Positions 7,798 to 62,875 are shown, counted from the first letter of the stretch. The stretch: DNA of 64,000 nucleotides from Candidatus Omnitrophota bacterium (GCA_015233195.1 JADFYE010000011.1:4472-68471), one strand, 5' to 3'. The notes: generated by a model not told the origin, from the letters alone. Numbers and translations are program-made.

Positions 7798-9340
7798 CGT
7801 GGTTTTGGAAAAGGTAACATTATTAATAGTTGAAGATAATGACGCGGATTTTCGTCTGGTCGCGGAGTATTTGAAAGAATCTCCTTTGATATCCTTTGAA
7901 ATTGTCAGGGCGACGAGACTTTCAGATGCTATTATTATGTTATCGGAAAACAAAATTGATGCTGCTTTATTGGATCTTGATCTGCCGGATAGTAAAGGAT
8001 TATCCATAATAGAAAAAATTTATAATCATGATCAGGGAATTGCGATATTAGTTGTGACCGGATTAGATGATGAGAAATTAGGAATAGAAGCAGTTAAAAA
8101 AGGTGCACAGGATTATCTGGTTAAAGGGGCTATTAATGGAGAGCTGCTTTATAGAAGTATTCGCTATGCAGTAGAACGTAAGCGAGCGGAAAAAGCTTTG
8201 CATGAGAGTGAAGATAGGTTGAAATTTGCGCTTAAAGCAAGCCACACTGGAGCATGGGATTTAGATCTTATTGATCATACTGCAGTAAGATCGATAGAGC
8301 ATGACCGTATATTTGGTTATAATGAACTCTTGCCTTTATGGACTTATGAAATGTTCAGAGAACATGTGCTTCCAGAAGACCGTGAAATTGTGGATAGTAA
8401 GTTTATGTCAGCTATTGAAAATAAAACTGATTGGAATTTTGAGTGCCGCATTCGCCGGGTTGATGGAAAAGAGCGCTGGATCTGGGCGGTAGGGCGGCAT
8501 CATAGCGATGCATTCGGTAGAGTGCGGCGTATGGCTGGGATTGTGCAGGATATAACTGAAAGAAAATTGGCTGAAGAGATTTTGAAACGCGATAAGGAAA
8601 CTTTTGAGCGGCTGGTACAAGAAAGAACCAAAGATTTAGTAAATGCACAAGTCGAATTGGAACGGGCAAAACGGCTTTCTGATATTGGAGTATTAGCAGC
8701 TACGGTTGCTCATGAGTTGCGTAATCCTCTGGCAGCTATAGCTATGGCGTCGGCTAATATTCAGCGTAAAGCTAAAGACGCGTCATCATTAGAGGGGCAT
8801 TTTCAAGTTATAGAAAAGAAAGTATTTGAGAGTGATCAAATTATTAATAATCTGTTGTTTTATTCGCGGCTGCGTAAGCCTGATTTAAAAAAAGTAGATA
8901 TTTATTCTATTCTAGAAGAATGTGTTGATCACGCAGAAAAACAGTCTCAGAATAAAATTGTATTTACGAAGAAGTTTGATTCGATAAAAAATATTTTTAT
9001 TGAAGCGGATACCTTGCAAATTCAGGAAACTTTTTCTAATTTATTAAATAATGCTCGCGACGCGATTAACAGTGGCACCGGCGTAATAGAAATAAACGCG
9101 AGTCATGATTCCGAGTCGGTTAAAGTAATCATAAAAGATAATGGAAGCGGCATAGCAGAAGAAGATTTAGCGCATATATTTGATCCATTTTTTACTACCA
9201 AAGCCAAAGGTACTGGATTGGGACTAACAGTTTGTTATCAAATAATGAAGATGCATGGCGGATCTATTGGTTTTAAAAGTGAAAAGGATCAAGGGACAGC
9301 GGTTGAATTAATTTTGTCTAAAAAAGGTAAAAATGCTTAA
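7763..9340 (+). CDS. Hybrid receiver-PAS-histidine kinase
   Basis: N-terminal REC ([24 protein letters not shown]), PAS, then a HisKA/HATPase core about 70-80% identical by eye to that of the 1..2237 kinase. True start uncertain (ATG 7763 or 7781, or GTG 7799). Confidence 0.85.
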
Positions 9341-9731
9341 GCGAAAGATTTTAATTATTGATGATGATGTTGAATTATGCGAGGGTATGGCGACTTTGTT
9401 GCGGCATGAAGGATATATGGTTGAAAACACGTCTGATGTTTTTGCGGGAGTGAATTTGATTGAAGAACAAGAATTTAATGTTGTTTTGCTGGATTTCAGG
9501 ATGAAGGGTATGAACGGTATTGATATTTTAAAAAAAATCCAGAGTAAAAATTCCAAGATGAAAGTTTTTATTATCAGCGGTCAGCCGTCTATAGAGGAAT
9601 TGCTAGAGGACGAAAAAGTGTCGCATCTGGTAGCTGGAATAATTAATAAACCGTTTAGCGCAAAAGTTTTATTGGAAAAGATTAAAAAATCTTTGGAAAT
9701 TATACCGCCTAAATCTAGTGGAAAAAAGTAA
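9333..9731 (+). CDS. Single-domain response regulator (receiver only), paralogue of 2230..2589
   Basis: ILIIDDDVEL, LLDFRMKGMNG, IISGQ, NKPF. 8-nt overlap (ATGCTTAA) with the upstream kinase. Confidence 0.9.
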   Translation: MLKRKILIIDDDVELCEGMATLLRHEGYMVENTSDVFAGVNLIEEQEFNVVLLDFRMKGMNGIDILKKIQSKNSKMKVFIISGQPSIEELLEDEKVSHLVAGIINKPFSAKVLLEKIKKSLEIIPPKSSGKK

Positions 9732-14373: not shown

Positions 14374-17165
14374 ATGATCGAATTATAAATTTTAGTTTTT
14401 GCGATGATTATATTGCTCAATTAACCGAGTTTATGTTGAAACGGTATGCGAGCTATGATAATGATCTGCGCCGTATTGCTGTCGTTTTCGGCGGACGTAG
14501 ACCGGCTTTATTTTTAAAGAGCGCTTTAGCTAAAAAATTCCGTTCGAATTTTTTCCCTCCTACTATTTTACGTATCGATGATCTGGTCGGAATAATTGCC
14601 GGTAAAGAGCAGGATAAAGCTTTGGTGCAGGATATGGACGCTGCTTACATTTTATACGGTTTAGCTAAACAACATACTCCTGAGCTTTTGGCTGGACGCG
14701 TTTCATTTGCGGAATTTTTACCTTGGGCTAAAGAGATAATTGCTTTTTTAGATCAGTTGGATCTGGAAGATATTGACAATAAACTTTTAGCAGATGTGGC
14801 GTTGAACGCAGAGGTTGGGTTTGATGTGCCGGAAGATATTAATGCGCTTTTAAAATATTTGAGTACGCTGCGAATTTTGTATTGCCAGACTTTGAGCGCT
14901 CAAGGATTATTTTCTCGAGGGATGCTATATAAGCAGGCAGCTGAAAACGCGGGTAGTGCGGTTTTGGATAAATGGGATGAGATTATATTCGCCAATTTCT
15001 TTTATTTTAACGCGTCGGAATTAAAAGTTGCCAAAACTTTAGTTGACTGTAAAAAAGCAGTAATGGCTTTCCAAGGGGACAGCCGCAAATGGTCGGTATT
15101 GGATAAGTTGTCAAAACATTTTGGCGCGCCGATTATTGAAGGAAAAGAAATTGATAAACCTAAATTCGATTTGAAAATTTATGAAGCGTTTGATGTTCAT
15201 TCTCAAGTGGGTTTAGTGCGTAAGATTTTAAGCGAAGTAAAAGACCTGGAACGCACAGTAGTGGTTTTACCTCAGCCGGATCACATAATACCTTTATTAT
15301 CCGACGTTGCAGGTTCGATTAAGGATTTCAACATTTCTCTGGGTTATCCGTTAAAACGCAGTAGTGTTTTTTCTTTGTTTGAAAGTATTTTTGAATGCCA
15401 GATATCTAAAAAAGATGGACGTTATCATGCAAAGAATTATTTGAAGCTTTTAATGCATCCGTTTATAAAAAATTTGGAATTGTCACAAGGCGCTTCAGTT
15501 ACCCGGATTTTGATACATAAAATCGAGGAGGTTTTAACCGGGCAGATACCTGCGGATATATCCGGAAAATTATTTATTAATTTAGAGGACATCTTAAGAG
15601 CTAATGAGATTTTTGATTCAGCCTGCCGGTCTACTGCTGATCAGGAAAATGTTAGTTTAAATTTAGAGCTTAAGAAAGATTTGGCATTGATCCATGAAGT
15701 ATTTTTTACAGAATGGGGCGAGATAAAGACTTTTCATGCTCTGGCGTTGCAGATAAAACGGGTATTGGATGTGCTTACTGAAAAAAGTTTTTTGCGGAAT
15801 TATCCGTTGAATATAAATATCGTGAATCGTTTGTCTGATATGGCGGATAAATTTTTGCAAGCGCAGTTTAAACACGAAGAGTTTACGATAGAAGAGATAT
15901 TCAAATTATTCACCTCAGGCGTAGAGCATGAGATAGTAGCTTTTATTGGCTCGCCGTTAAAAGGTTTACAAATTTTAGGTTTATTTGAAACCCGTTCTTT
16001 GAATTTTGATAATGTGATTGTAATGGATGCTAATGAAGGGGTTTTACCTCGTCTAGAATTGCGGTCTAATTTAATACCGCGTGAAGTTATGCTGGCTTTG
16101 AAGCTGGATCGGCTGGATATGGAAGAAGAGATACAGCGTTATCAATTTATGCGGCTGATATCATCAGCTAAAACCGTGCATTTGGTTTATCAGCATAATA
16201 ATGCTAAAGAGCGCAGCCGGTTTGTGGAGGAGCTTTTATGGGAAGATCAGAAAAAATTTAAGAAACTAGCGGCTTTACCAGTGGTTAAAGCTGGGTTTAA
16301 AGTTTCTGCGTTGCGGGATATCAGGCGGGTCAAAAAAACTCCGGAAGTTATTGAGCTTTTGCGCGGGTTTAAGTTTTCATCGTCCAGCGTAAACACTTAT
16401 TTACGGAATCCTATGGATTTTTATTATCAGTATATTTTAGGGTTACGGGAAAAAGAAGATATGCTGGATGAAATTGAAGCTAAAGAAGTCGGGACATTTT
16501 TTCATGAATTATTGGAAGAAGCATTTAAACCGTTTCTGGGGAAGAAGCCGTTGATTGACCGCGCGTTTATGGAAACTTTTGAACGTATCGCGCAGGAAAA
16601 ATTTGATGTTTATTTTGGTAAAGCAGGCAAGTCAGAAAATTTTCTCTTAAAAACTGTTATTGATGAACGGGTCAAACGTTTTCTGGAAAACGAGAGATCG
16701 TCTGAGGATCGTAAGGTAGCTAAAGTTTTATATTTGGAACAACGGTTTACGGATGAAATACATCTGCCTGGAGGTAAAGTGTTTTTTAATTATGTTTTTG
16801 ACCGGATAGATGAAATGGAAGACGGTTCCATCATGATATTGGATTATAAAACTGGATCAACTGATAAGGTGCCTAAGACTTTTGAAAATTTAGCAGAAGC
16901 GGAATTATCGAGGGAATTTTTGAAAAAACATATAGGGTCTTTTCAGCTTCCTTTATATTTTTATTATTTATCCCGTAAATATCCTGGCAAGAAGCTTAAT
17001 GCAGCTTTATATAGTTTAAGAACCCTGGGGTTGACATATTTTATAAAAGATAAGATGATGGATATTTCATATGAAGCAATAAATCAAGTATATCTGAAAG
17101 CATTGGATTTTATTATTAATGAGATCAAAAATCCGGAGGTAGATTTCATTGAAGAAGAAGACTAA
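14370..17165 (+). CDS. AddB-like PD-(D/E)XK nuclease subunit (no Walker A, no C-terminal Cys cluster)
   Basis: ATGA overlap with addA-like. C-terminal FDRIDEMEDGSIMILDYKTGS...QLPLY RecB-family nuclease motif. No GxxGKT/S, and no Cys in the last ~260 aa. Confidence 0.75.
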   Translation: MNDRIINFSFCDDYIAQLTEFMLKRYASYDNDLRRIAVVFGGRRPALFLKSALAKKFRSNFFPPTILRIDDLVGIIAGKEQDKALVQDMDAAYILYGLAKQHTPELLAGRVSFAEFLPWAKEIIAFLDQLDLEDIDNKLLADVALNAEVGFDVPEDINALLKYLSTLRILYCQTLSAQGLFSRGMLYKQAAENAGSAVLDKWDEIIFANFFYFNASELKVAKTLVDCKKAVMAFQGDSRKWSVLDKLSKHFGAPIIEGKEIDKPKFDLKIYEAFDVHSQVGLVRKILSEVKDLERTVVVLPQPDHIIPLLSDVAGSIKDFNISLGYPLKRSSVFSLFESIFECQISKKDGRYHAKNYLKLLMHPFIKNLELSQGASVTRILIHKIEEVLTGQIPADISGKLFINLEDILRANEIFDSACRSTADQENVSLNLELKKDLALIHEVFFTEWGEIKTFHALALQIKRVLDVLTEKSFLRNYPLNINIVNRLSDMADKFLQAQFKHEEFTIEEIFKLFTSGVEHEIVAFIGSPLKGLQILGLFETRSLNFDNVIVMDANEGVLPRLELRSNLIPREVMLALKLDRLDMEEEIQRYQFMRLISSAKTVHLVYQHNNAKERSRFVEELLWEDQKKFKKLAALPVVKAGFKVSALRDIRRVKKTPEVIELLRGFKFSSSSVNTYLRNPMDFYYQYILGLREKEDMLDEIEAKEVGTFFHELLEEAFKPFLGKKPLIDRAFMETFERIAQEKFDVYFGKAGKSENFLLKTVIDERVKRFLENERSSEDRKVAKVLYLEQRFTDEIHLPGGKVFFNYVFDRIDEMEDGSIMILDYKTGSTDKVPKTFENLAEAELSREFLKKHIGSFQLPLYFYYLSRKYPGKKLNAALYSLRTLGLTYFIKDKMMDISYEAINQVYLKALDFIINEIKNPEVDFIEEED

Positions 17166-19218
17166 AAAAATACAACAAACTTCCAATATAAAAACTGCAG
17201 TGGTGCCGGTTCCTGCTAAAAGACCGGTTTGGCAAGTGTGGCTATTGATAATTTTTGGGATATTAATCTATTCTAATACTTTTAATGCTACTTTTCATTT
17301 TGATGACCGGATATTCGTCGTAGAAAATCCTAACATCCGTGACATAACAAATATTAAGGCTATGTGGCATTCAATGCCGCAGAATTCGCGTTTTGTGGCT
17401 ACAGTTTCATTTGCTTTGAATTTCGCTATAGGTAAATTAAATGTGGTTGGTTATCACGTGGTTAATATCATGATTCATTTGATAAATGGATTTTTGGTAT
17501 GGTGGCTGGTTAAATTATTGTTTAACACTCCTGGTCTCAGCAAGTATAAGTTAAAAGAATTTAGTAATGAAATAGGATGGCTATCCGCCATGTTGTTTAT
17601 CGCCCATCCTTTGCAGACGCAGGCTATTACTTATATAACGCAAAGATATGCCTCATTAGCAACGTTATTTTATGTATTGACGATGTGTTGGTATTTAAAA
17701 GCTAGGTTGAATGCGGATAAGAAATTTTTTATTTTAAGTGGGGTTAGTGCTTTGTTAGGTATTTTTACAAAAGAGATGACTATGACATTGCCGTTAATGC
17801 TCTTATTGACTGAATGGTTAATGTTCGAGCATAAACAGATAAAGTTTAAGACGGTATTTATTTATTTTTTAATTTTAATCGGGTTTTTGTTGATAGTTCC
17901 GGCATTAATGCAGTTTAATTTCTTTTGGGCATTATTTGATCCCAAGCCTTCGTCTTCACATAAATGGGATATGATTATGCTCGAGCCTTATTTGATGACA
18001 CAGCTTAAAGTATGGGTGTTGTTACTGGCAAAATTTATTGTTCCGATTCATCAGAATGTTGATTATGATTTTCCGCTTTCACATAATTTTTGGCAGATAG
18101 ATGTGTGGGGCAGCGCGGTGTTGTTGGCGACGTTGCTAGTATTCGCGATAATTTATCGAAAGAAAAATGTTTTAGTAAGTTATGGTATTTTGTGGTTTTT
18201 TGTGGCGATTAGTATTGAATTTGTTCCTCGAATTTATGTGATATTCGAACATAAGATGTATTTACCGATCGTTGGTTTAAGTATGGCAGTTATTGGTTTA
18301 TGGCGGGAAAAAATACAAAATGAAAAAGTCCGGATGATTTTGATTACTTCATTAATTGTTTTGTTAGGCATGATCACGTTTCAACGTAACGCAATTTGGA
18401 AAGATGATATTTCATTGTGGTCGTCTGTAGTAAAAGAATCTCCGAATAAACCAAGCCCTAATTATAATTTAGGATGCGCGTATCAGCAGAAGGGCATGCC
18501 GGATGAAGCTTTGTATTATTTTAATCAAACCTATAATTCTTATCGCTACCATTATAAGAATTATGTAAATCGCGCGATGATATTGGAAGATCGGGGAGAT
18601 ATTAAAGGCGCGTTTGAAGATCTGAACCGGGCGATATTTTTACGAAACGATCTGGCTGAAGCTTTTAATAACCGGGGAGGTTTGTTTGGTAGACTGGAAA
18701 AATACGACCAGGCTTTAGCTGATCTTAACCGTTGTTTAATGATTCAGCCGATATTTCCTGAGGCGTATTATAACCGGGGTATGGTATATCAGAAACAGAA
18801 CCGTTTTCCTGAAGCTGTGGCAGATCTAAATATGGCTATAAAATTAAATCCTAGGTATACGGCTGCTTATTTGAATCGAGGCAGCGCGTATATTATGATG
18901 CAAAAATATAATGAAGCTTACCAAGATCTTACTAAAGCCATTGAGCTGAATCCTCAATATGCTGAAGCATATTTAAATCGAGGCGCAGCTTTAATGCAGT
19001 TGGGTAAACCCGAAGACGCATTAGTTAATTTTTCAAAGGCTATTCAATATAAACCGGATTGGGCAATGGCTTATTATAACCGGTGTTTTGTTTATCGGGC
19101 TTTGAATCGTTTAGATTTGGCTAGAAAAGACGCGCTTTATATTTTGAATTTTAATTTAGAGCTCGGTGAAAAACCAAAAGCGGAATTAAAGAAATTTTTA
19201 GGGCTACAGGCGAAATAG
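17149..19218 (+). CDS. Polytopic membrane protein (GT-C-like, TMTC/PMT-type) with C-terminal TPR repeats, paralogue 1
   Basis: TTG start with GGAGG 9 nt upstream. FHFDD acidic motif after TM1, about 10 hydrophobic segments, then about 7 TPR units (AEAYxNRG pattern). Confidence 0.75.
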   Translation: MKKKTKKIQQTSNIKTAVVPVPAKRPVWQVWLLIIFGILIYSNTFNATFHFDDRIFVVENPNIRDITNIKAMWHSMPQNSRFVATVSFALNFAIGKLNVVGYHVVNIMIHLINGFLVWWLVKLLFNTPGLSKYKLKEFSNEIGWLSAMLFIAHPLQTQAITYITQRYASLATLFYVLTMCWYLKARLNADKKFFILSGVSALLGIFTKEMTMTLPLMLLLTEWLMFEHKQIKFKTVFIYFLILIGFLLIVPALMQFNFFWALFDPKPSSSHKWDMIMLEPYLMTQLKVWVLLLAKFIVPIHQNVDYDFPLSHNFWQIDVWGSAVLLATLLVFAIIYRKKNVLVSYGILWFFVAISIEFVPRIYVIFEHKMYLPIVGLSMAVIGLWREKIQNEKVRMILITSLIVLLGMITFQRNAIWKDDISLWSSVVKESPNKPSPNYNLGCAYQQKGMPDEALYYFNQTYNSYRYHYKNYVNRAMILEDRGDIKGAFEDLNRAIFLRNDLAEAFNNRGGLFGRLEKYDQALADLNRCLMIQPIFPEAYYNRGMVYQKQNRFPEAVADLNMAIKLNPRYTAAYLNRGSAYIMMQKYNEAYQDLTKAIELNPQYAEAYLNRGAALMQLGKPEDALVNFSKAIQYKPDWAMAYYNRCFVYRALNRLDLARKDALYILNFNLELGEKPKAELKKFLGLQAK

Positions 19219-19270: not shown

Positions 19271-19440
19271 CAAATTTTTTTTAGTTAAAAGTCGGAGGGA
19301 TTGAGCGGACGTTGATAATTCGAGCGGGCACGGTTCGCACATGTTTTATGTGCGAGAGCGAGAATTATCGCCGAGCGTAGTTTAATACGCTGGATTAAAC
19401 AAGCGTTTCGTGAAATACCGAAGACTTTTATAAAAATTTG
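19271..19440. repeat. Repeat family A, copy 1 (~170 nt, terminal inverted repeats CAAATTTTT/AAAAATTTG, internal hairpins)
   Basis: Aligns over its full length with the reverse complement of 25399-25572 (core ~125 nt about 85-90% identical by eye). Several differences are compensatory within predicted stems. Confidence 0.8.
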
Positions 19441-19486: not shown

Positions 19487-21286
19487 ATGAATTCAAAAAT
19501 TTTTAAGATAATACTTTTAATATTATTTGGTCTAGTTATTTACTCCAATTCTTTCCAAGTGCCTTTCCAATATGATGATTATATTTTCATTTCCGGTAAT
19601 CCGGACATCCGCGATATAACCAATATCAAAGCTATGTGGAATTCTCAGCCGCAGAATTCGCGGTTTGTGGCAACAGTAACTTTCGCTATTAATTACGCGA
19701 TAGGCAAGTTGGATGTGGTCGGATATCACGTCGTAAATATTATTATTCATTTAATAAATGGGTTTTTGGTGTGGTGGTTGGTTAGATTATTATTTAACAC
19801 TCCTGGTCTTCGTGGTCATAGGTTAAAAGAATTCAGTAGTGAGATCGGTTGGTTAAGTGCAATGCTGTTTATCGCGCATCCTTTGCAGACGCAAGCAGTG
19901 ACATACATAACGCAAAGGTACGCGTCGCTGGCGACGTTGTTTTATTTGTTAACGATGTGCTGGTATTTAAAAGGACGCAGCTCCGTTGATAAAAAAAATA
20001 TATATTTTATTGGAGCCGGCATTAGCGCGTTGTTGGGTGTATTCACGAAAGAAATGACCATGACCATACCTTTAATGCTTTTATTAACCGAATGGTTGAT
20101 GTTCGAGCATAAAAATATAAAATGGCAGACTGTTTTTATTTACAGCTTAGTTTTATTAGGTTTTTTGATGATTGTTCCAGCCTTAATGCATTTTAATTTT
20201 TTCTGGGCGTTTTTTGAACCTAAGACTTCTTCTTCGCATACTTGGGACGTAGTTACGCTTGAACCTTTTTTGATTACGCAATTAAAGGTGTGGGTTTTGT
20301 TGCTGGCTAAATTTGTTATTCCTATAGGTCAGAATCTTGATTATGATTTTCCGCTTAAGCATAATTTTTGGCAGTTTGATGTGTGGGGCAGTGGTTTGGT
20401 GTTGGCAGGATTGTTGATTTTTGCGCTGGTTTATCGTCGGAAAAATGTTTTAGTAAGTTATGGTATTATGTGGTTTTTTGTAGCGATCAGCATTGAGTTT
20501 GTTCCTAGGATTTATTTGATATTCGAACATAAGATGTATTTGCCGATCGCGGGCTTAAGCATGGCAGTGATTGGTTTGTGGAGAGAGAAGATCAAAGATG
20601 AAATAGCGAGGATCATAATTATTTCCGCAGTCATAGTTGCTCTGGGATTTTTGACGTTTAATCGTAACGCGGTTTGGGGAAGTGCGATTTCATTATGGTC
20701 GGATGTGGTTAGTAAATCACCAAATAAAGCGTCGGCTTTGCATATGTTGGCTTTTTCTTATATTGAAGACGGTGATATTAAAAAAGGTTATGCGTATTTA
20801 GAGCGGACGCTGAATCAGGACCGGTATTATGTCAAGGCGCTTTATAACAAGGCGTATGTTTTTATTGAATTAGGTCAAAATGGAGAGGCTTTAAAAAATT
20901 TAAATGAGTGTCTGCGTCTGAATCCTCATTATTCGAGAGCTTATGTGAAGCGGGGTTTAGTTTATACTAACTTGGGTGAATATCAAAACGCGTTAAATGA
21001 TTTTGCAAAAGCGATTGAGCTTGAGCCCAGATATTCTGGAGGATATTTAAATCGAGGTGTAGCTTATTATAAAATGAATAATATTCTTTTGGCGATAAAA
21101 GATTTTAAAACCGCGATTAATTTAGCTCCGGAAATGGGAGGGGCATATTATAATCTTTTTTCAGCGTATAAGCTGCAAGGGGATGGTGTTCACGCTAAAG
21201 CCACTGCGCAGGATATAAAAAAGTTTAAATTAAAAATTTCTGATAAGCAGCAAATGGAAGTAGATCAGTTTGTTAGAGAAAATTGA
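19487..21286 (+). CDS. Polytopic membrane protein (GT-C-like) with C-terminal TPR repeats, paralogue 2
   Basis: Membrane domain about 80% identical by eye to 17149..19218 over ~410 aa (FQYDD motif). TPR region shorter and divergent. Confidence 0.8.
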   Translation: MNSKIFKIILLILFGLVIYSNSFQVPFQYDDYIFISGNPDIRDITNIKAMWNSQPQNSRFVATVTFAINYAIGKLDVVGYHVVNIIIHLINGFLVWWLVRLLFNTPGLRGHRLKEFSSEIGWLSAMLFIAHPLQTQAVTYITQRYASLATLFYLLTMCWYLKGRSSVDKKNIYFIGAGISALLGVFTKEMTMTIPLMLLLTEWLMFEHKNIKWQTVFIYSLVLLGFLMIVPALMHFNFFWAFFEPKTSSSHTWDVVTLEPFLITQLKVWVLLLAKFVIPIGQNLDYDFPLKHNFWQFDVWGSGLVLAGLLIFALVYRRKNVLVSYGIMWFFVAISIEFVPRIYLIFEHKMYLPIAGLSMAVIGLWREKIKDEIARIIIISAVIVALGFLTFNRNAVWGSAISLWSDVVSKSPNKASALHMLAFSYIEDGDIKKGYAYLERTLNQDRYYVKALYNKAYVFIELGQNGEALKNLNECLRLNPHYSRAYVKRGLVYTNLGEYQNALNDFAKAIELEPRYSGGYLNRGVAYYKMNNILLAIKDFKTAINLAPEMGGAYYNLFSAYKLQGDGVHAKATAQDIKKFKLKISDKQQMEVDQFVREN

Positions 21287-24478: not shown

Positions 24479-25339
24479 ATGGTTAAAGTCGGAATTATAG
24501 GCGGGAGCGGGCTGTATCATATTGAAGGTATTGCGAATGTAAAAGAGATCACAGATATTAAAACGCCTTTTGGTATGGCGTCTGATTCTTTATTTGCCGG
24601 ACAATTAGACGGGATAGATGTAGTATTCTTATCCCGCCATGGGCGGGGGCATCGGGTATCTCCGTCTGAAATAAATTACCGAGCTAATATTTTTATGATG
24701 AAAAAACTCGGAGTGGACGCTATACTTTCAGTTTCCGCTTGCGGCAGTTTGCGTGAGGATATGAAACCTTTGGATTTTGTAGTGCCGGACCAATTTGTTG
24801 ACCGCACGCATCAGGCGCGTAAAATGACATTTTTTGAGAATGGAATAGTCGCTCATGTTTCATTGGCTGATCCGGTTAGTCCGGAATTGACCAAAATCCT
24901 GGTCGATAGTTGTAAAAGTTTAGGTTTAAGGGTTCATCCAAAAGGTACGTACATAAATATGGAAGGTCCGCAATTCTCGACCAAGGCTGAGTCGAATTTG
25001 TATCGCCAATGGGGTATGGATATTATTGGAATGACTACTATGTCTGAAGCCCGTCTGGCGCGCGAAGCAGAAATTTCATACGCGACTTTGGCTGCAGTTA
25101 CAGATTATGATTGCTGGCATCCGGGACACGACGCTGTAACTGTGGATATGATAATTGGTTATTTAACTAAGAACGCGGAGAACGCTAAAAAGATATTGAA
25201 GCTGGCTATACCAAAGATCGGGCAGTTGAAAGAGTTCAGCGCCCAAGGCGCGCTTAAGTTCGCGTTATTAACCGACCGAAAAGCAATCCCAGAACGCGTT
25301 AAAAAAGATTTAGAAATTTTGATTAAAAATTATTTGTAA
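24479..25339 (+). CDS. mtnP: S-methyl-5'-thioadenosine phosphorylase
   Basis: IGIIGGSGLY, FLSRHGRGH, NYRANI, GMTTMSEARLAREAE; typical MTAP family pattern. Confidence 0.9.
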   Translation: MVKVGIIGGSGLYHIEGIANVKEITDIKTPFGMASDSLFAGQLDGIDVVFLSRHGRGHRVSPSEINYRANIFMMKKLGVDAILSVSACGSLREDMKPLDFVVPDQFVDRTHQARKMTFFENGIVAHVSLADPVSPELTKILVDSCKSLGLRVHPKGTYINMEGPQFSTKAESNLYRQWGMDIIGMTTMSEARLAREAEISYATLAAVTDYDCWHPGHDAVTVDMIIGYLTKNAENAKKILKLAIPKIGQLKEFSAQGALKFALLTDRKAIPERVKKDLEILIKNYL

Positions 25340-25347
25340 AAAAATAG

Positions 25348-25376
25348 TCCCGTAAAATCGCTTTGCGATCACGGGA
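25348..25376 (+). terminator. Rho-independent terminator of the yggS-proC-mtnP unit
   Basis: TCCCGT...ACGGGA outer stem with inner ATCGC-TTT-GCGAT, followed by TTTATT. Confidence 0.7.
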
Positions 25377-25398: not shown

Positions 25399-25572
25399 CA
25401 AATTTTTGATTAAAAATCTTCGGTATTTCGCGGAACGCTTGTTTAATCCGGCGTATTAAACTGCGCTCGAAGATAATTCTCGCTCTCGTACGGTGAAGCA
25501 TGTACGAACCGTGCCCGCTTGAATTATCTAACGTCCGCTTTAATACCTCAAATTTTTAACTTTAAAAATTTG
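25399..25572. repeat. Repeat family A, copy 2 (inverted relative to copy 1)
   Basis: Reverse complement aligns with 19271-19440, including the terminal CAAATTTTT/AAAAATTTG. Confidence 0.8.
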
Positions 25573-25592
25573 TTAATAATATAAAAATTGTA

Positions 25593-25631
25593 TCCCTCTC
25601 CAGCCTCTGGGGAGAGGGTAGGGTGAGGGGA
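25593..25631 (+). repeat. Hairpin repeat family B, copy 1 (CCCTCTCC-loop-GGAGAGGG-TAGGGTGAGGGG)
   Basis: 8-bp stem plus G-rich tail. Ends 2 nt before the ileS ATG, so the GGTGAGGGG tail sits where the SD should be. Confidence 0.8.
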
Positions 25632-25632
25632 T

Positions 25633-37075: not shown

Positions 37076-38382
37076 TGGATCTTGTTGTTAAAAAAATCTC
37101 ACAAATTAAGGGGCATGTAGTTTGCCCTGCTTCAAAGTCGTATTCTATCCGCGCGTTTATTATTGCGGCTTGCGGAGGTAAGTCTAATATTATTTCCCCG
37201 TCGGATTGTGATGATGCTAAAACTGCATTAAAAACTGCTAAAGCTTTAGGCGCAAAAATAATAAAATTTAATAATGGGTTTAATGTGCAAGGCGATATTT
37301 TGCCGCTTAAACAAAAAACTGTGTGTGTGGATGAGTCAGGCACTGTACTACGTTTTTTATTGCCTTTATTGGCTCTGCATGATCAGCAGGTTATTGTCGA
37401 GGGAAAAGGTTCACTTATTGGACGACCGAATACTTTCTTGATTAAAACTTTGCAGGATATGGGCGTGAATATTAAAGGTTCAGGTGATAAACATAGCGTG
37501 CCGATAAAATTAAATGGCGGGGTAATGTCCGGCGGCAAGATCAAGATAGACGCGAGCGTGAGTTCGCAATTTGTGTCTGCGCTTTTGATAGCTTGTCCGC
37601 AATTAGCAGTTGATACTAGTTTGACTTTGACTGGTGATTTAGTGTCAGGTGATTACATTACCATGACGCTGCAGATGCTGGAACGGGCGGGGATAAAAAT
37701 AAAAATAAATAGGGACAGACGCTATTTATTATCAAAAACAAATAAAATAAATAGCGTCTGTCCCTATTTATTAATACCTGGTCGGCAAAAATATAAGGGT
37801 TTGAAAAATTTTCATGTGCCGTCTGATTATGGATTAGCCGCATTTTTAATGGGTGCTGCAGCTTTAGTTAAGTCTAATGTTAGTTTAAAAGGTTGTTTCG
37901 ACGATAGTTTAGTTCAGGCGGATGGACATATTATTGAATTTTTGGAACGCATGGGCGTAAAAATGGTTCGCACTAAAAAGTCGATCAAAATTAAAGGACC
38001 ATTTGAATTAAAAGGCGGGGATTTTTCTTTAAAAGCCTGCCCTGATCTGGTTCCAATCATGGCAGTGTTAGCATTGTTCGCGAAAGGACGCACTCGGCTT
38101 TATAATATTGCTCATGCAAAAGTAAAAGAGTCAGACCGTATTTCTGATCTAAGAAAAGAATTATTAAAAGTTGGGGCGGACGTCAGGGAATCTAAGGATG
38201 AATTGTTGATTTATCCTCGTGAAGAGTATAAGTCAGGGCAGATACTGGATCCTCACAATGATCATCGTTTAGCTATGGCGTTTTCTATATTGGGTTTGCG
38301 AATCGGATGCACAGTCAAGAATATAGAATGCTCGCATAAATCCTATCCAGGGTTTGTTAAAGATTTTCGTTCAATTTTATAA
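37075..38382 (+). CDS. aroA: 3-phosphoshikimate 1-carboxyvinyltransferase (EPSP synthase) carrying an in-frame palindromic-repeat insertion
   Basis: PASKSYSIRA, ESGTVLRFLLP, SSQFVSALL, KESDRI, NDHRLAMAF. TAATG overlap with the upstream gene. Residues INRDRRYLLSKTNKINSVCPYL are encoded by the repeat at 37704-37772. Confidence 0.9.
   Translation: MDLVVKKISQIKGHVVCPASKSYSIRAFIIAACGGKSNIISPSDCDDAKTALKTAKALGAKIIKFNNGFNVQGDILPLKQKTVCVDESGTVLRFLLPLLALHDQQVIVEGKGSLIGRPNTFLIKTLQDMGVNIKGSGDKHSVPIKLNGGVMSGGKIKIDASVSSQFVSALLIACPQLAVDTSLTLTGDLVSGDYITMTLQMLERAGIKIKINRDRRYLLSKTNKINSVCPYLLIPGRQKYKGLKNFHVPSDYGLAAFLMGAAALVKSNVSLKGCFDDSLVQADGHIIEFLERMGVKMVRTKKSIKIKGPFELKGGDFSLKACPDLVPIMAVLALFAKGRTRLYNIAHAKVKESDRISDLRKELLKVGADVRESKDELLIYPREEYKSGQILDPHNDHRLAMAFSILGLRIGCTVKNIECSHKSYPGFVKDFRSIL
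37704..37772. repeat. Palindromic repeat family C, copy 1 (27-bp perfect arms, 15-nt loop), intragenic in aroA
   Basis: AATAAATAGGGACAGACGCTATTTATT at 37704-37730, exact reverse complement at 37746-37772. The same 24-nt arm occurs at 62741-62798. Confidence 0.9.
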
Positions 38383-59957: not shown

Positions 59958-62746
59958 TCTTTGGATCGCTGTCTCGTAGATTAATATTTTTTATTTTAGC
60001 ATTTTGGGGTCTTAGCATATTTTGTGTAAGCGCTAATGCTGAATATATTGATGATGATGAGGTTGATGCTTCCTCATGTTATCGTATCGGTATTGTTACA
60101 GAGCAGGAAGATATTGATGCGTCAGAACAATGGATGCCGGTTGTAGATTACCTTAATACCAATATTAAAGATCAATGTTTTGCTATCCGCTATTTTAAGC
60201 CTTCTTACAGTTTATCTGCCATAAAAGCCAAAGAAGCTGATTTTTTATTTATGAGTCCAGTAGTCTACTCAGAATTAGAACATCACGTTTTGATAGACAC
60301 CTATTTGAGTATGGAACGTTTACAGGGCGGCATGTATTATTCGCGCAGCGGCGCCACTGTTTTCACTCGTCCGGAACAAAAAGATATTAATGTTTTTAAA
60401 GATTTGAAACATAAAAAAGTAATTGTCTTTAAATCTGAGGATATGCGGGGTGAGTTGGCTTTTGAGCGGGAGTTAGTAAAACTTCATGTTGATCCTAAAA
60501 AAGCATTTAAAAAATATATTTTGACTGAGAATAAAAAAGATATTCTATCTTCAGTTTTACGCAAAGAATATGACGCGGGAGTTTTGGCTACCGGAGATTT
60601 GGAAGATCTGGTGGCTAAAGGGGCTTGTTCTTGGAAGGATTTAAAAATAATCGAACCATATAAAGATTTTCAGATGAAAATGTTTTATGGGGTATCGTTC
60701 CGTTATAGCACTGATCTTTACGCTGATTGGATTTTTGTTTCTATTCGAAATATTCAGTCTCAAATAGTCAGGGATGTGGTTGGGGCGTTATTAAAGATGC
60801 CACCGCATAAGGCTGGTTTTGGCGAAGTTTGGCGTCCAGCATACGATTATCATGATGTTCATGACGCGCTTTGGGACCTAAAACGTGGTAGTCATAATTT
60901 GTGGCATATTCAGAATTCTTTGGCTCGGCTTTGGAGTTCTTATGGATGGTTGATTGTTTTGATATTGTTTATATTTGTGTCAAGCTTGATTTTGGCTATA
61001 TATTTATTAATCAATAATTTCTTATTAAGAAAATCAAAATCGGAATTATCCTACCGGGTATTTTCACAAAAAGAGATTGAAGCCGGGGTTCAGGAGACGG
61101 AAGCCAGGATTGAAGCCATATTGAATGCTATACCTTACGCGGTGATAGGGTTTGAGAATGACACTATAATTTTTGTGAATGGGGCGGTAAAAAAAATCTT
61201 TGGCTGGGATCCGGAAAATTTATTGGGTAAGACTGCTGAAATGCTTTATTCGGGTGAGCATTATATTAATTTAATAAAAGAGATATATTTATCGTTTAAA
61301 AAAGATCAAGTGCTTTGTAAAGAAATAAGTGCTCAAAGAAAAAACGGGGAACACTTTGATTGTTTAGTAAATATTGCGCAGACCAAAACTGTGGGAATTG
61401 ACCATCGCTTTGTCGGGGTGTTTATCGATGTTTCAAATCAGTATCAACAGGAAGAATTGTTAAAGAAACTTTCCAAAGCTGTTGAGCAAAATCCGGTCGG
61501 CGTGTTGATTGTTTCTTATCTTGGCAAGGTCGAATATGTGAATGACAGTTTTGCGCATATAACTGGACTGGAACATTCGCATATTATGAGTTCGTCTGCG
61601 CATAAAATTCTTAGTGAATTATTTTTATATAGTGAAAGTAAAGATTTATGGAATTCTATAGTGACTGCGCAGCTTACCCAAAAAGAATTTTTGACTCAGC
61701 GTAAGAATGGTGAGCAATACTGGGCGGCATTAACGGTTTCTTTGCTTAAAAATTTGGAAGGATCAGTAAGTTATATTGTGTTTAATTGGGATGATATTTC
61801 TGAACGTAAAAAAGCTGAAGATCAGCTTCGTAAAAGTCAGCAGGAAGTAGAACGGGTCAATGCCAGCCTGCTGGATAATGAAAAAGCTTTAAAGACTATG
61901 ATCCAGGATCTGGAATCAACACATAATCAGTTAAAAACTATGCAGACGCAGTTGATTCAGACTGAAAAACTTTCGTCGATCGGGCAATTAGCCGCAGGTA
62001 TAGCGCATGAAATTAATAATCCGATTGCTTTTATTAATAGCAACATGGACGCGTTGGAAAGATATTTAGGAAGTATAAAAAAGATATTTGACGTGTTGCA
62101 CGAGTATGATCGCACTTCTAAAGATGAAGTTGATAAGTTTCATGAAGCGTTTGCAAAAATGAGCAGGATAAAGAATGAGGAAAATATTGATTTTATTTTA
62201 AAAGATATAGATGATGTGATCCATGAATCTAAAGAAGGATTGGAACGGATCAAAAATATTGTAATTGATCTTAAGACTTTCTCGAGGAGAGATGATTCTT
62301 CCCGGGTATTCGCTGACTTGAACCAGATATTAGAAGGAGTTATAAACATTGTCTGGAATGAAATACGATATAAGGCTAAATTGACCAAAAATTTTCAAAA
62401 AATATCATTGGTGAATTGTAATCCTCAGCAGTTGGGTCAGGTATTTATAAATCTTTTAATCAATGCTATTCAGGCAATACCGGAAAAAGGTGAAATAGTT
62501 TTATCAACTTATGAAAAAAATGGGTTTGCAGTAGTTGAAATATCTGATACCGGATCAGGCATACCCGATAATGTGCGGCCATATATTTTTGAGCCTTTTT
62601 TCACTACTAAAAAAGCGGGTGAGAGTACTGGCTTGGGTTTGAGCATAAGTTTAGAAATAATCACTAGGCATCAAGGAAAGATCGACGTGAAAAGTAAAGT
62701 TGGTGAAGGCACTACTTTTTATGTATATTTGCCGCTTTCTAAATAG
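59954..62746 (+). CDS. Sensor histidine kinase with periplasmic PhnD-like solute-binding domain, TM, 2x PAS, HisKA, HATPase_c
   Basis: ATGA overlap. Signal/TM, then YRIGIVTEQ...FLFMSPVVY (phosphonate-binding-protein-like fold), TM WLIVLILFIFVSSLILAIYLLI, PAS x2, H-box GIAHEINNPI, DTGSGI, STGLGL. Confidence 0.88.
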   Translation: MIFGSLSRRLIFFILAFWGLSIFCVSANAEYIDDDEVDASSCYRIGIVTEQEDIDASEQWMPVVDYLNTNIKDQCFAIRYFKPSYSLSAIKAKEADFLFMSPVVYSELEHHVLIDTYLSMERLQGGMYYSRSGATVFTRPEQKDINVFKDLKHKKVIVFKSEDMRGELAFERELVKLHVDPKKAFKKYILTENKKDILSSVLRKEYDAGVLATGDLEDLVAKGACSWKDLKIIEPYKDFQMKMFYGVSFRYSTDLYADWIFVSIRNIQSQIVRDVVGALLKMPPHKAGFGEVWRPAYDYHDVHDALWDLKRGSHNLWHIQNSLARLWSSYGWLIVLILFIFVSSLILAIYLLINNFLLRKSKSELSYRVFSQKEIEAGVQETEARIEAILNAIPYAVIGFENDTIIFVNGAVKKIFGWDPENLLGKTAEMLYSGEHYINLIKEIYLSFKKDQVLCKEISAQRKNGEHFDCLVNIAQTKTVGIDHRFVGVFIDVSNQYQQEELLKKLSKAVEQNPVGVLIVSYLGKVEYVNDSFAHITGLEHSHIMSSSAHKILSELFLYSESKDLWNSIVTAQLTQKEFLTQRKNGEQYWAALTVSLLKNLEGSVSYIVFNWDDISERKKAEDQLRKSQQEVERVNASLLDNEKALKTMIQDLESTHNQLKTMQTQLIQTEKLSSIGQLAAGIAHEINNPIAFINSNMDALERYLGSIKKIFDVLHEYDRTSKDEVDKFHEAFAKMSRIKNEENIDFILKDIDDVIHESKEGLERIKNIVIDLKTFSRRDDSSRVFADLNQILEGVINIVWNEIRYKAKLTKNFQKISLVNCNPQQLGQVFINLLINAIQAIPEKGEIVLSTYEKNGFAVVEISDTGSGIPDNVRPYIFEPFFTTKKAGESTGLGLSISLEIITRHQGKIDVKSKVGEGTTFYVYLPLSK

Positions 62747-62798
62747 GGACAGACGCTATTTATTTGCAAGATACAATAAATAGCGTCTGTCCCTATTT
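62741..62798. repeat. Palindromic repeat family C, copy 2 (24-bp perfect arms, 10-nt loop), overlapping the kinase stop codon
   Basis: AAATAGGGACAGACGCTATTTATT at 62741-62764 and its reverse complement at 62775-62798. The kinase TAG (62744-62746) lies inside the left arm. It probably also acts as the cluster terminator. Confidence 0.88.
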
Positions 62799-62875
62799 AA
62801 AATACTAAGACCAAGGTCGCATTTATCCTGCCTTATATTATTGTTATATTACTCCCTTAATATAGAGGAGTTCAT

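Follow-up and report, generated by a model that had tools for sequence, protein, structure and literature searches.

The 64,000-nucleotide stretch of Candidatus Omnitrophota DNA analysed here (the window) carries two intergenic copies of a structured element. Their sequences place them in a conserved family that Rfam 15 does not contain. Across this family we observed a common fold with covariation, a defined folded strand, a patchy multi-copy spread, a discrete unit and empty orthologous sites. On balance, we favour the reading that these are conserved structured elements, probably mobile, which behave as non-autonomous intergenic repeats and whose single-stranded fold is under selection. A structured non-coding RNA and a MITE-like element had been offered as alternatives by the first-pass annotation of this DNA; the evidence favours both together, and the two are not exclusive. 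The Omnitrophota have not been cultured; they are ultra-small and possibly predatory, and we know of no described non-coding RNA biology in them. The element would join an ornate structured RNA with MITE-like repeat behaviour, two things that are usually treated separately.

Two inverted copies and their relatives

Copy 1, the full element from P0 to P0', occupies 19271-19440 with + as its folded strand, and copy 2 occupies 25399-25572 with - as its folded strand, the two being inverted relative to each other. The end-to-end alignment reported at first pass was reproduced: copy 1 and the reverse complement of copy 2 align with 86% mean column identity over 234 columns, flanks included, and with 82% identity over the 121-position core. 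Each copy begins with CAAATTTTT and ends with AAAAATTTG, and neither has directly duplicated flanks, again as first described; what had been called terminal inverted repeats corresponds to the predicted closing helix, P0, of the family model given below. Within the window, a 14-mer from the core is found only at copies 1 and 2. When folding was compared with dinucleotide shuffles, z scores of -4.3 to -5.9 were obtained for both strands of both copies.

To collect relatives, 185,579 species genomes were scanned with the pattern GCGGGCACGG-N(10-40)-GAGAGCGAGAA. This gave 88 loci, mostly chance matches in high-GC genomes, from which the true relatives were separated by blastn and nhmmer with the window copies as queries; a stricter pattern applied to metagenome contigs gave 16 more loci. 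The family amounts to 35 matches, or about 33-34 distinct copies, in 13 species-level MAGs and metagenome contigs, and is thus more than the local pair first seen. Nine of the MAGs are labelled Candidatus Omnitrophota or Omnitrophica, and the other four are TPA MAGs labelled Planctomycetia or Planctomycetales. The window, too, comes from an Omnitrophica MAG, as its MTAP protein shows 100% identity to a 'Candidatus Omnitrophica bacterium' entry at NCBI. The element is about 155-175 nt long and non-coding. Every relative was found by matching exact patterns to the most conserved loop, which biases the sample towards it.

The family was then compared with what has been catalogued. At gathering thresholds, the 4227 covariance models of Rfam 15 gave no match in the window and only tRNAs in 17 related loci, and at E <= 10 both copies and the divergent member L063a returned only noise (11-20 bits), in agreement with the initial remark that the repeat resembled no recognised RNA family. 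A full-text literature search, with most subscription journals outside its scope, found no published description of the element. No member was present among IMG/VR viral contigs searched by pattern scans and then with the covariance model, and a phage origin was rejected on this ground.

The fold, its covariation and the folded strand

The fold was derived from alignments A2-A5, RNAalifold and a covariance model, R1, which was built from 25 seed sequences and has 121 positions and 29 pairs; realigning the 35 matches gave alignment A5. On the 64-kb window with filters off, the model found copies 1 and 2 only, at 103.3 bits (19299-19415) and 99.5 bits (25425-25545), and the next match scored 13.5 bits (E = 0.21).

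In this fold a long closing stem, P0, leads via a tandem G.A step to P1 (GCNGCA/UGCNGC) and then to a three-way junction almost without unpaired residues. In copy 1 (+ strand), the 5' arm of P0 (CAAAUUUUU ... UAAAAGUC, 19271-19293) pairs in the MFE fold with the 3' arm at 19423-19440 (GACUUUUA.AAAAAUUUG), and P0 covaries in relatives. By model and alignment, the 5' strand of P1 (GCGGACG, 19305-19311) pairs with 19404-19411 (CGUUUCGU). The first arm runs in order through P2a, P2, a tandem G.A step, two G-C pairs, an internal loop and P3. P2a has 2 bp, one alternating between C-G and U-A and the other between G-C and C-G, and P2 has 8 bp, its 5' strand in copy 1 (GAUAAUUC, 19314-19321) pairing with 19362-19369 (GAAUUAUC) with 96% of cells paired. 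The internal loop is invariant and asymmetric, 5' GGGCACGG(U) / 3' GA, and the hairpin beyond it, P3, is variable. In copy 1, the invariant columns at 19322-19333 (GAGCGGGCACGG) hold the tandem G.A step, the GC pairs and the internal loop, those at 19356-19362 (GAGCGAG) form the 3' side of the GC pairs and tandem G.A step, and P3 spans 19334-19355 by fold and alignment.

In the P4 arm, GC pairs are followed by a tandem G.A step or GCA/AA loop and then by a variable stem of 6-8 bp, capped by a conserved 7-nt loop, YCGCUGG (L4). By RNAalifold and pair counts, P4 of copy 1 lies at 19375-19404 on the + strand, with GC, the internal loop GUA/AA and the stem GUUUAAU/AUUAAAC, and its loop, ACGCUGG, is at 19387-19393. 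L4 pairs with the internal loop of the first arm by 2-3 bases, a contact that in the model locks the two arms side by side. Tertiary-pair counts assign G19328 and C19329 of the copy 1 internal loop to this contact. In copy 2 (- strand), model and alignment place the internal loop (AAGCGGGCACGG) at 25509-25520 and pair its G25514 and C25513 with C25451 and G25452 of L4, which alignment with copy 1 places at 25448-25454 (ACGCCGG). Tandem G.A motifs (CGAG/CGAG) are conserved in three to four helices, and the element has about 25 invariant nucleotides in all. A separate observation concerns an internal duplication, present in copy 1 (19301-19333 and 19356-19415) and in all relatives: UUC-GA-GC(N)GCAC ... 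GC-GA-GAA occurs at the P0/P1 boundary and again at P2/internal loop, as if one tandem-G.A helix module were present twice in the fold, one copy nested within the other.

Covariation supports this fold across the family and is very strong, bearing out the early suggestion of selection on a folded nucleic acid. In A5, whose counts lean to the model structure, a tendency mitigated by slid controls and by a mutual-information ranking, 93.8% of 1076 cells are standard pairs compared with 35-49% after a shift of 1-3 columns in the 3' partners, and changes on both sides are found in 28 of 32 pairs. The covariation score of A5 is 0.547, against 0.151 after shuffling (0 of 500 shuffles reach 0.547) and at most 0.123 after sliding. 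Since A5 was fitted to the model, all column pairs were also ranked by APC-corrected mutual information, and the top 12 all fell within proposed helices. In P4, the 'GC' of AGCG and the 'GC' of the downstream AAGCG form C-G in 30 sequences and U-A in 4.

The tertiary pair between the third G of GGGCAC and the C of CGCUGG is G-C in 28 copies, C-G in 4 and broken in none, and the copies with C-G (L024a, L084b/L095b, L087b) are not each other's nearest neighbours. This clean swap supports the loop-to-internal-loop contact. Copies with the standard and the variant tertiary pair appeared to be paired within loci; we dismissed this co-occurrence as ascertainment bias because the scan pattern required the standard loop.

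The closing stem also covaries. In copies that start with GCGGGUGRC and end with GRCAGGACCCGC, P0 is 85% paired versus 30-45% when slid, with double changes in 19 of 29 pairs and three pairs outside the conserved GCGGG. A constant AGG bulge marks P0 of this type, as does a purine-purine mismatch alternating between A.G and G.A; a kink-turn reading of the bulge was rejected, as by eye its register is off the k-turn consensus. The window copies have an AU-rich P0 in its place, and the ends of the element differ between subfamilies (CAAAUUUUU, GCGGGUG and GAACGGCGA).

Several differences between the two window copies can be placed in this structure. Two G.U pairs of P1 in copy 1 are G-C in copy 2, which keeps the pairing, and the U of L4 in copy 1 is C in copy 2, which turns the tertiary G.U into G-C. 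Two of the four compensatory changes proposed at first pass also fit the family fold: C-G to U-A in P3 (UCGCACAU/AUGUGCGA versus UCGUAC/GUACGA), and G-C to A-U in P0 (UAAAAGUC/GACUUUUA versus UUAAAAAU/AUUUUUAA), where the sequences are as claimed and covariation of the closing stem is seen in GCGGGUG-type relatives. A third, at the foot of P2 (T.G in copy 1, A-T in copy 2), is at a position that forms no pair of the family model. The fourth, AGCGUA/UACGCU, had been mis-assigned: the real hairpin is GUUUAAU/AUUAAAC and CGCUGG is its conserved loop, so this helix fails, and the hint that it gave of + as the folded strand at 25.4 kb falls away with it. An H-type pseudoknot, in which the loop of an AGCG/CGCU hairpin would pair downstream, was likewise rejected, as RNAalifold and pair counts make the 'downstream' pairing the real P4 stem.

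The folded strand was identified from the non-standard pairs. The helices of A5 contain 12 G.U versus 2 A.C, and 35 G.A/A.G versus 7 C.U/U.C. As the conserved tandem G.A steps would be pyrimidine-pyrimidine mismatches on the opposite strand, the folded strand is + for copy 1 and - for copy 2, the latter contrary to the first reading. Selection appears to act on a single-stranded fold, and RNA is most likely its form, in view of the complex fold, the tertiary pair and the purine-rich invariant loops.

Genomic setting and dispersal

By our own ORF calls the copies are always intergenic, and among 20 copies about 8 are sense and 12 antisense to the flanking genes. The neighbours are unrelated housekeeping genes: AddB/TPR and MTAP/IleRS in the window, MTAP and IleRS again in L057, and elsewhere S9/ArgC, cytochrome b/multihaem cytochrome, FolD/MTHFR, LeuB/Asd, KsgA/GatC, Mfd, SerA and Rpe. 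Copy 1 is sense and 47 nt upstream of the second GT-C/TPR gene, and copy 2 is antisense to both its neighbours. The genes downstream of sense copies (GT-C/TPR, HCP, Asd, ArgC, SerA, Rpe) are unrelated. An all-against-all ORF comparison of 23 loci found no recurrent neighbour protein family, which led us to reject an associated protein partner. No transposase-like ORF family recurred within about 4 kb of any copy, and no reverse transcriptase, integrase or TnpA gene was present in the examined loci. Integration linked to tRNAs was also rejected, since a tRNA adjoins one orthologous group only (L069/L094/L101). A scan found no sigma-70-type promoter upstream of copies 1 and 2, and inspection by eye found no conserved upstream motif among the copies.

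Several features beside the copies were noted. The GT-C/TPR genes on either side of copy 1 (17149-19218 and 19487-21286) are tandem paralogues; they had been described as near-identical, and their DNA identity over 300-nt blocks is only 75-76%. Between the MTAP stop codon and copy 2, hence 3' of copy 2 on the - strand, a CCCGU...ACGGG hairpin with A/T runs on either side (25330-25375), recognised by sequence and missed by a simple terminator scan, looks like a bidirectional terminator outside the repeat. A further hairpin beside copy 2 (CCCTCTCC...GGAGAGGG, 25585-25632) lies immediately upstream of ileS. In two other loci, pairs of copies bracket toxin-antitoxin-like cassettes, as direct copies in L078 (3229-4351, MazE-like and YafQ-like) and as inverted copies in L024 (3681-5890, nucleotidyltransferase).

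The element behaves as a discrete unit. Four copies lie within 8 kb in L033, and two lie head to head only 2 nt apart in L084. Close copies were found in different species with unrelated flanks: identity is 93% between L033a and L027 (165 nt) and 97% between L087a and L061 (156 nt). The absence of target-site duplication first noted for the window pair proved general, with no direct repeats in the flanks of >20 copies. Where flanks are related they are complementary, for example GGCA...TGCC or TTTA...TAAA, and represent either a further helix or a palindromic target.

Orthologous sites without the element were found in related genomes. In the closest relative, L105 (GCA_015233115.1), MTAP is 88% identical and the order AddB-TPR-YggS-ProC-MTAP-IleRS is kept, and neither the MTAP-IleRS nor the TPR-TPR spacer contains the element, the 20.8 kb being free of any copy. 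Syntenic DNA of 96 kb from 5 other Omnitrophota genomes (L105, L106, L138, L139 and L140) contained zero copies; the MTAP-IleRS spacer is 3-213 nt in these five and 3-92 nt in the four besides L105. The spacers of the window, L105 and L057 were unalignable outside coding regions and gave no exact empty-site junctions. In L057, whose MTAP is only 57% identical, a copy lies in the same MTAP-IleRS spacer in the same orientation as in the window; either the L057 copy was gained independently or insertion favours this spacer. We also observed that in L105 (10868-11079) and L106 (10862-10947) this spacer is filled by unrelated long inverted repeats with heptad-like units (GTATGTAG... / ...CTACATAC; AGTCACNAAGTCAC / GTGACNGGGTGAC), and the spacer holds different hairpin elements in different lineages.

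Other copies are retained or have decayed. Syntenic copies are kept in the related genomes L069/L094/L101 and L093/L096. Window copies 1 and 2 are mutual nearest neighbours within their genome, as are L063a/b and L024b/L051, and other within-genome copies are as distant as copies from other species. Because within-genome copies are often as diverged as those between genomes, nothing points to a recent burst. As copies 1 and 2 are closest to each other and both are absent from the nearest sequenced relative, we infer a gain plus a duplication in this lineage. Among the decayed copies, L051 4384-4574 has an insertion of about 70 nt inside L4, L093 1810-1937 has lost L4, and L078b (L078 4216-4340) is mutated in the invariant internal loop. 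The copy at L069 355-528 has a P0 5' arm of the GGCUUGG subtype and a 3' arm of the CCUCGG subtype which no longer pair, and the syntenic copy in L101 has matching arms; the mismatch suggests recombination or gene conversion between copies.

Candidate explanations and known systems

On the reading we favour, the element would be a non-autonomous intergenic repeat that occasionally duplicates or moves. Its core, in a single-stranded folded form that is most likely RNA, would be recognised by a factor encoded elsewhere in the genome, which may be a mobilising enzyme or an RNA-binding or processing protein. Such recognition would allow the element to persist, and the variable closing stem might only insulate the fold from its surroundings. 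Several observations speak against a mobile repeat. The loci examined show no target-site duplication, no autonomous partner element and no nearby gene for a transposase, reverse transcriptase or integrase. Conservation is lowest at the ends and highest in the centre, whereas a classical TIR-based MITE has the opposite pattern, and the copies kept at syntenic positions also fit a host function. If RNA is the active form, antisense copies would need a promoter of their own, and none was found at the window copies.

By analogy, the nearest systems appear to be ERIC/BOX/Correia-type repeats and MITEs in behaviour, and three-way-junction aptamers and docked-loop small ribozymes in architecture. 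ERIC/IRU, BOX and Correia repeats are imperfect palindromes of about 100-170 nt in intergenic DNA. The element resembles them in its size, intergenic site, occurrence in either orientation and multiple copies, in having a long imperfect hairpin, in presence/absence differences between relatives and in its lack of coding capacity. However, it has a non-palindromic invariant three-way-junction core and a covarying tertiary pair across 13 species-level MAGs, it lacks Correia's TA duplication, and it has no sequence in common with these repeats. Like MITEs, it is short and non-coding, has terminal inverted repeats (CAAATTTTT/AAAAATTTG on both window copies), is insertion-polymorphic between related genomes (both window sites are empty in L105) and forms a discrete unit with unrelated flanks. 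Unlike them, it has no target-site duplication (flanks of >20 copies) and no known parent IS, and its within-genome copies are old and diverged. The classical TIR-based MITE is a poor fit because the ends vary, covarying as a helix, and the centre is conserved.

Other repeat and guide-RNA systems differ more plainly. REP/REPIN sequences are palindromes of 20-40 nt with a conserved 5' tetranucleotide, inverted doublets and a RAYT gene, whereas the present unit has 155-175 nt and a non-palindromic core and there is no Y1-transposase ORF in its loci. No gene of the TnpB/IscB, IS110 or retron type is adjacent, as would be expected for omega RNA, bridge RNA or retron ncRNA; in contrast to guide RNAs, whose variable loops can be programmed, the element has invariant loops, and its two ends pair with each other.

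Host-encoded, paralogous trans-acting sRNA genes are the explanation that survives best beside a mobile repeat. Each copy would be its own transcription unit, and the stable RNA would serve the cell by binding a protein or a ligand. Covariation in several helices, as expected of a structured ncRNA, was found in the pair counts, the mutual-information ranking and the P0 counts. The strong purifying selection on the core nucleotides, the conserved tertiary contact, the paired termini, which many stable RNAs also have, the terminator-like hairpin that follows copy 2 on its own strand and the syntenic retention of some copies all agree with this proposal. We nevertheless regard it as unlikely, given that no conserved upstream sequence or promoter was seen, that the flanks share nothing even where they meet the closing stem, that the distribution is patchy with empty orthologous sites, and that several copies have decayed. 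Moreover, promoters would not fit between the head-to-head copies, which are separated by 2 nt.

The same absence of a promoter, together with the lack of a preferred orientation, would suit a DNA-level site, in which a recombinase or HUH transposase would act on the folded single strand (compare attC and the IS200/IS605-derived PATEs). The folded strand also folds well with DNA parameters (z -4.5), and tandem G.A pairs are stable in DNA too; an ssDNA substrate gains some plausibility from this fold, the neutral orientation and the absence of a visible promoter. The lack of target-site duplication, the flanks that are often mutually complementary, as if from a palindromic target, and the copy pairs flanking toxin-antitoxin cassettes in L078 and L024 point the same way. 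Integron attC sites and Vibrio VCR-type repeats are similarly structured as single strands, about 60-140 nt long, and can flank small (toxin-antitoxin) cassettes. However, the conserved centre and variable ends are the opposite of attC and of LE/RE ends, the core boxes R'' (RYYYAAC) and R' (GTTRRRY) are absent, orientation is mixed rather than uniform as in an array, and no intI lies nearby nor any integrase or TnpA gene in any locus. Both window copies lie within a single replichore of constant GC skew but on opposite strands, and a loop-to-loop tertiary pair is unusual for DNA substrates. We therefore consider a DNA-level site rather improbable.

The docked loops bring to mind a catalytic RNA: the dispersed repeat might carry a small ribozyme of a new class, for instance one that cleaves itself. 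Touching invariant loops, covarying stems and no gene association are typical of self-cleaving ribozyme classes, and bacterial hammerhead, twister and pistol ribozymes are scattered, multi-copy and polymorphic. The element likewise concentrates its invariant nucleotides in an internal loop and a hairpin loop in mutual contact, has covarying stems, and is present in multiple copies in either orientation without gene association. With hammerhead, twister, twister-sister, pistol and hatchet it would share a multi-stem junction, tertiary-paired conserved loops and scattered, multi-copy occurrence without gene association. Yet no Rfam ribozyme model matches even at E <= 10, no cleavage site can be inferred, and the core, at about 120 nt, is larger than most small ribozymes, which makes this analogy quite improbable as an explanation. 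The broader proposal that the element is a mobile bacterial RNA of a new class, either catalytic or dependent on its structure, is doubtful rather than probable; such an RNA could be a self-cleaving or self-ligating ribozyme on a SINE- or retrozyme-like repeat, or an RNA fold recognised by a trans-acting propagating enzyme.

A role in controlling the downstream gene in cis, as a riboswitch or attenuator leader, suggested by the sense position of copy 1 and by a three-way junction with docked arms that resembles purine/TPP-type aptamers (a closing P1, two roughly parallel arms and a distal tertiary contact), is barely tenable and was rejected, as about 12 of 20 copies, copy 2 included, are antisense to both neighbours against about 8 sense, and the element is not consistently in 5' UTRs, precedes unrelated genes with no regulon and has no visible expression platform.

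Taken against every named family considered, the element lacks features that were tested as defining it, and it has no match among the 4227 models of Rfam 15. If its fold is catalytic, or a handle for a mobilising enzyme, it would represent a new mechanism by which non-coding elements spread in bacteria. Should it be no more than a protein-binding module, it still provides a ready covariance model for annotating Omnitrophota genomes, a marker of intergenic turnover and a compact three-way junction rich in tandem G.A for structural study.

The window also contains other repeats. A second diverged pair of duplicated segments lies near its start (1525-2318 and 8631-9424, 7106 nt apart). Another repeat family, a 41-nt near-palindrome (TAAATAGGGACAGACGCTATTTA...), occurs at 37706-37746 and 62740-62799, in direct and inverted copies 25 kb apart with 83-85% identity.
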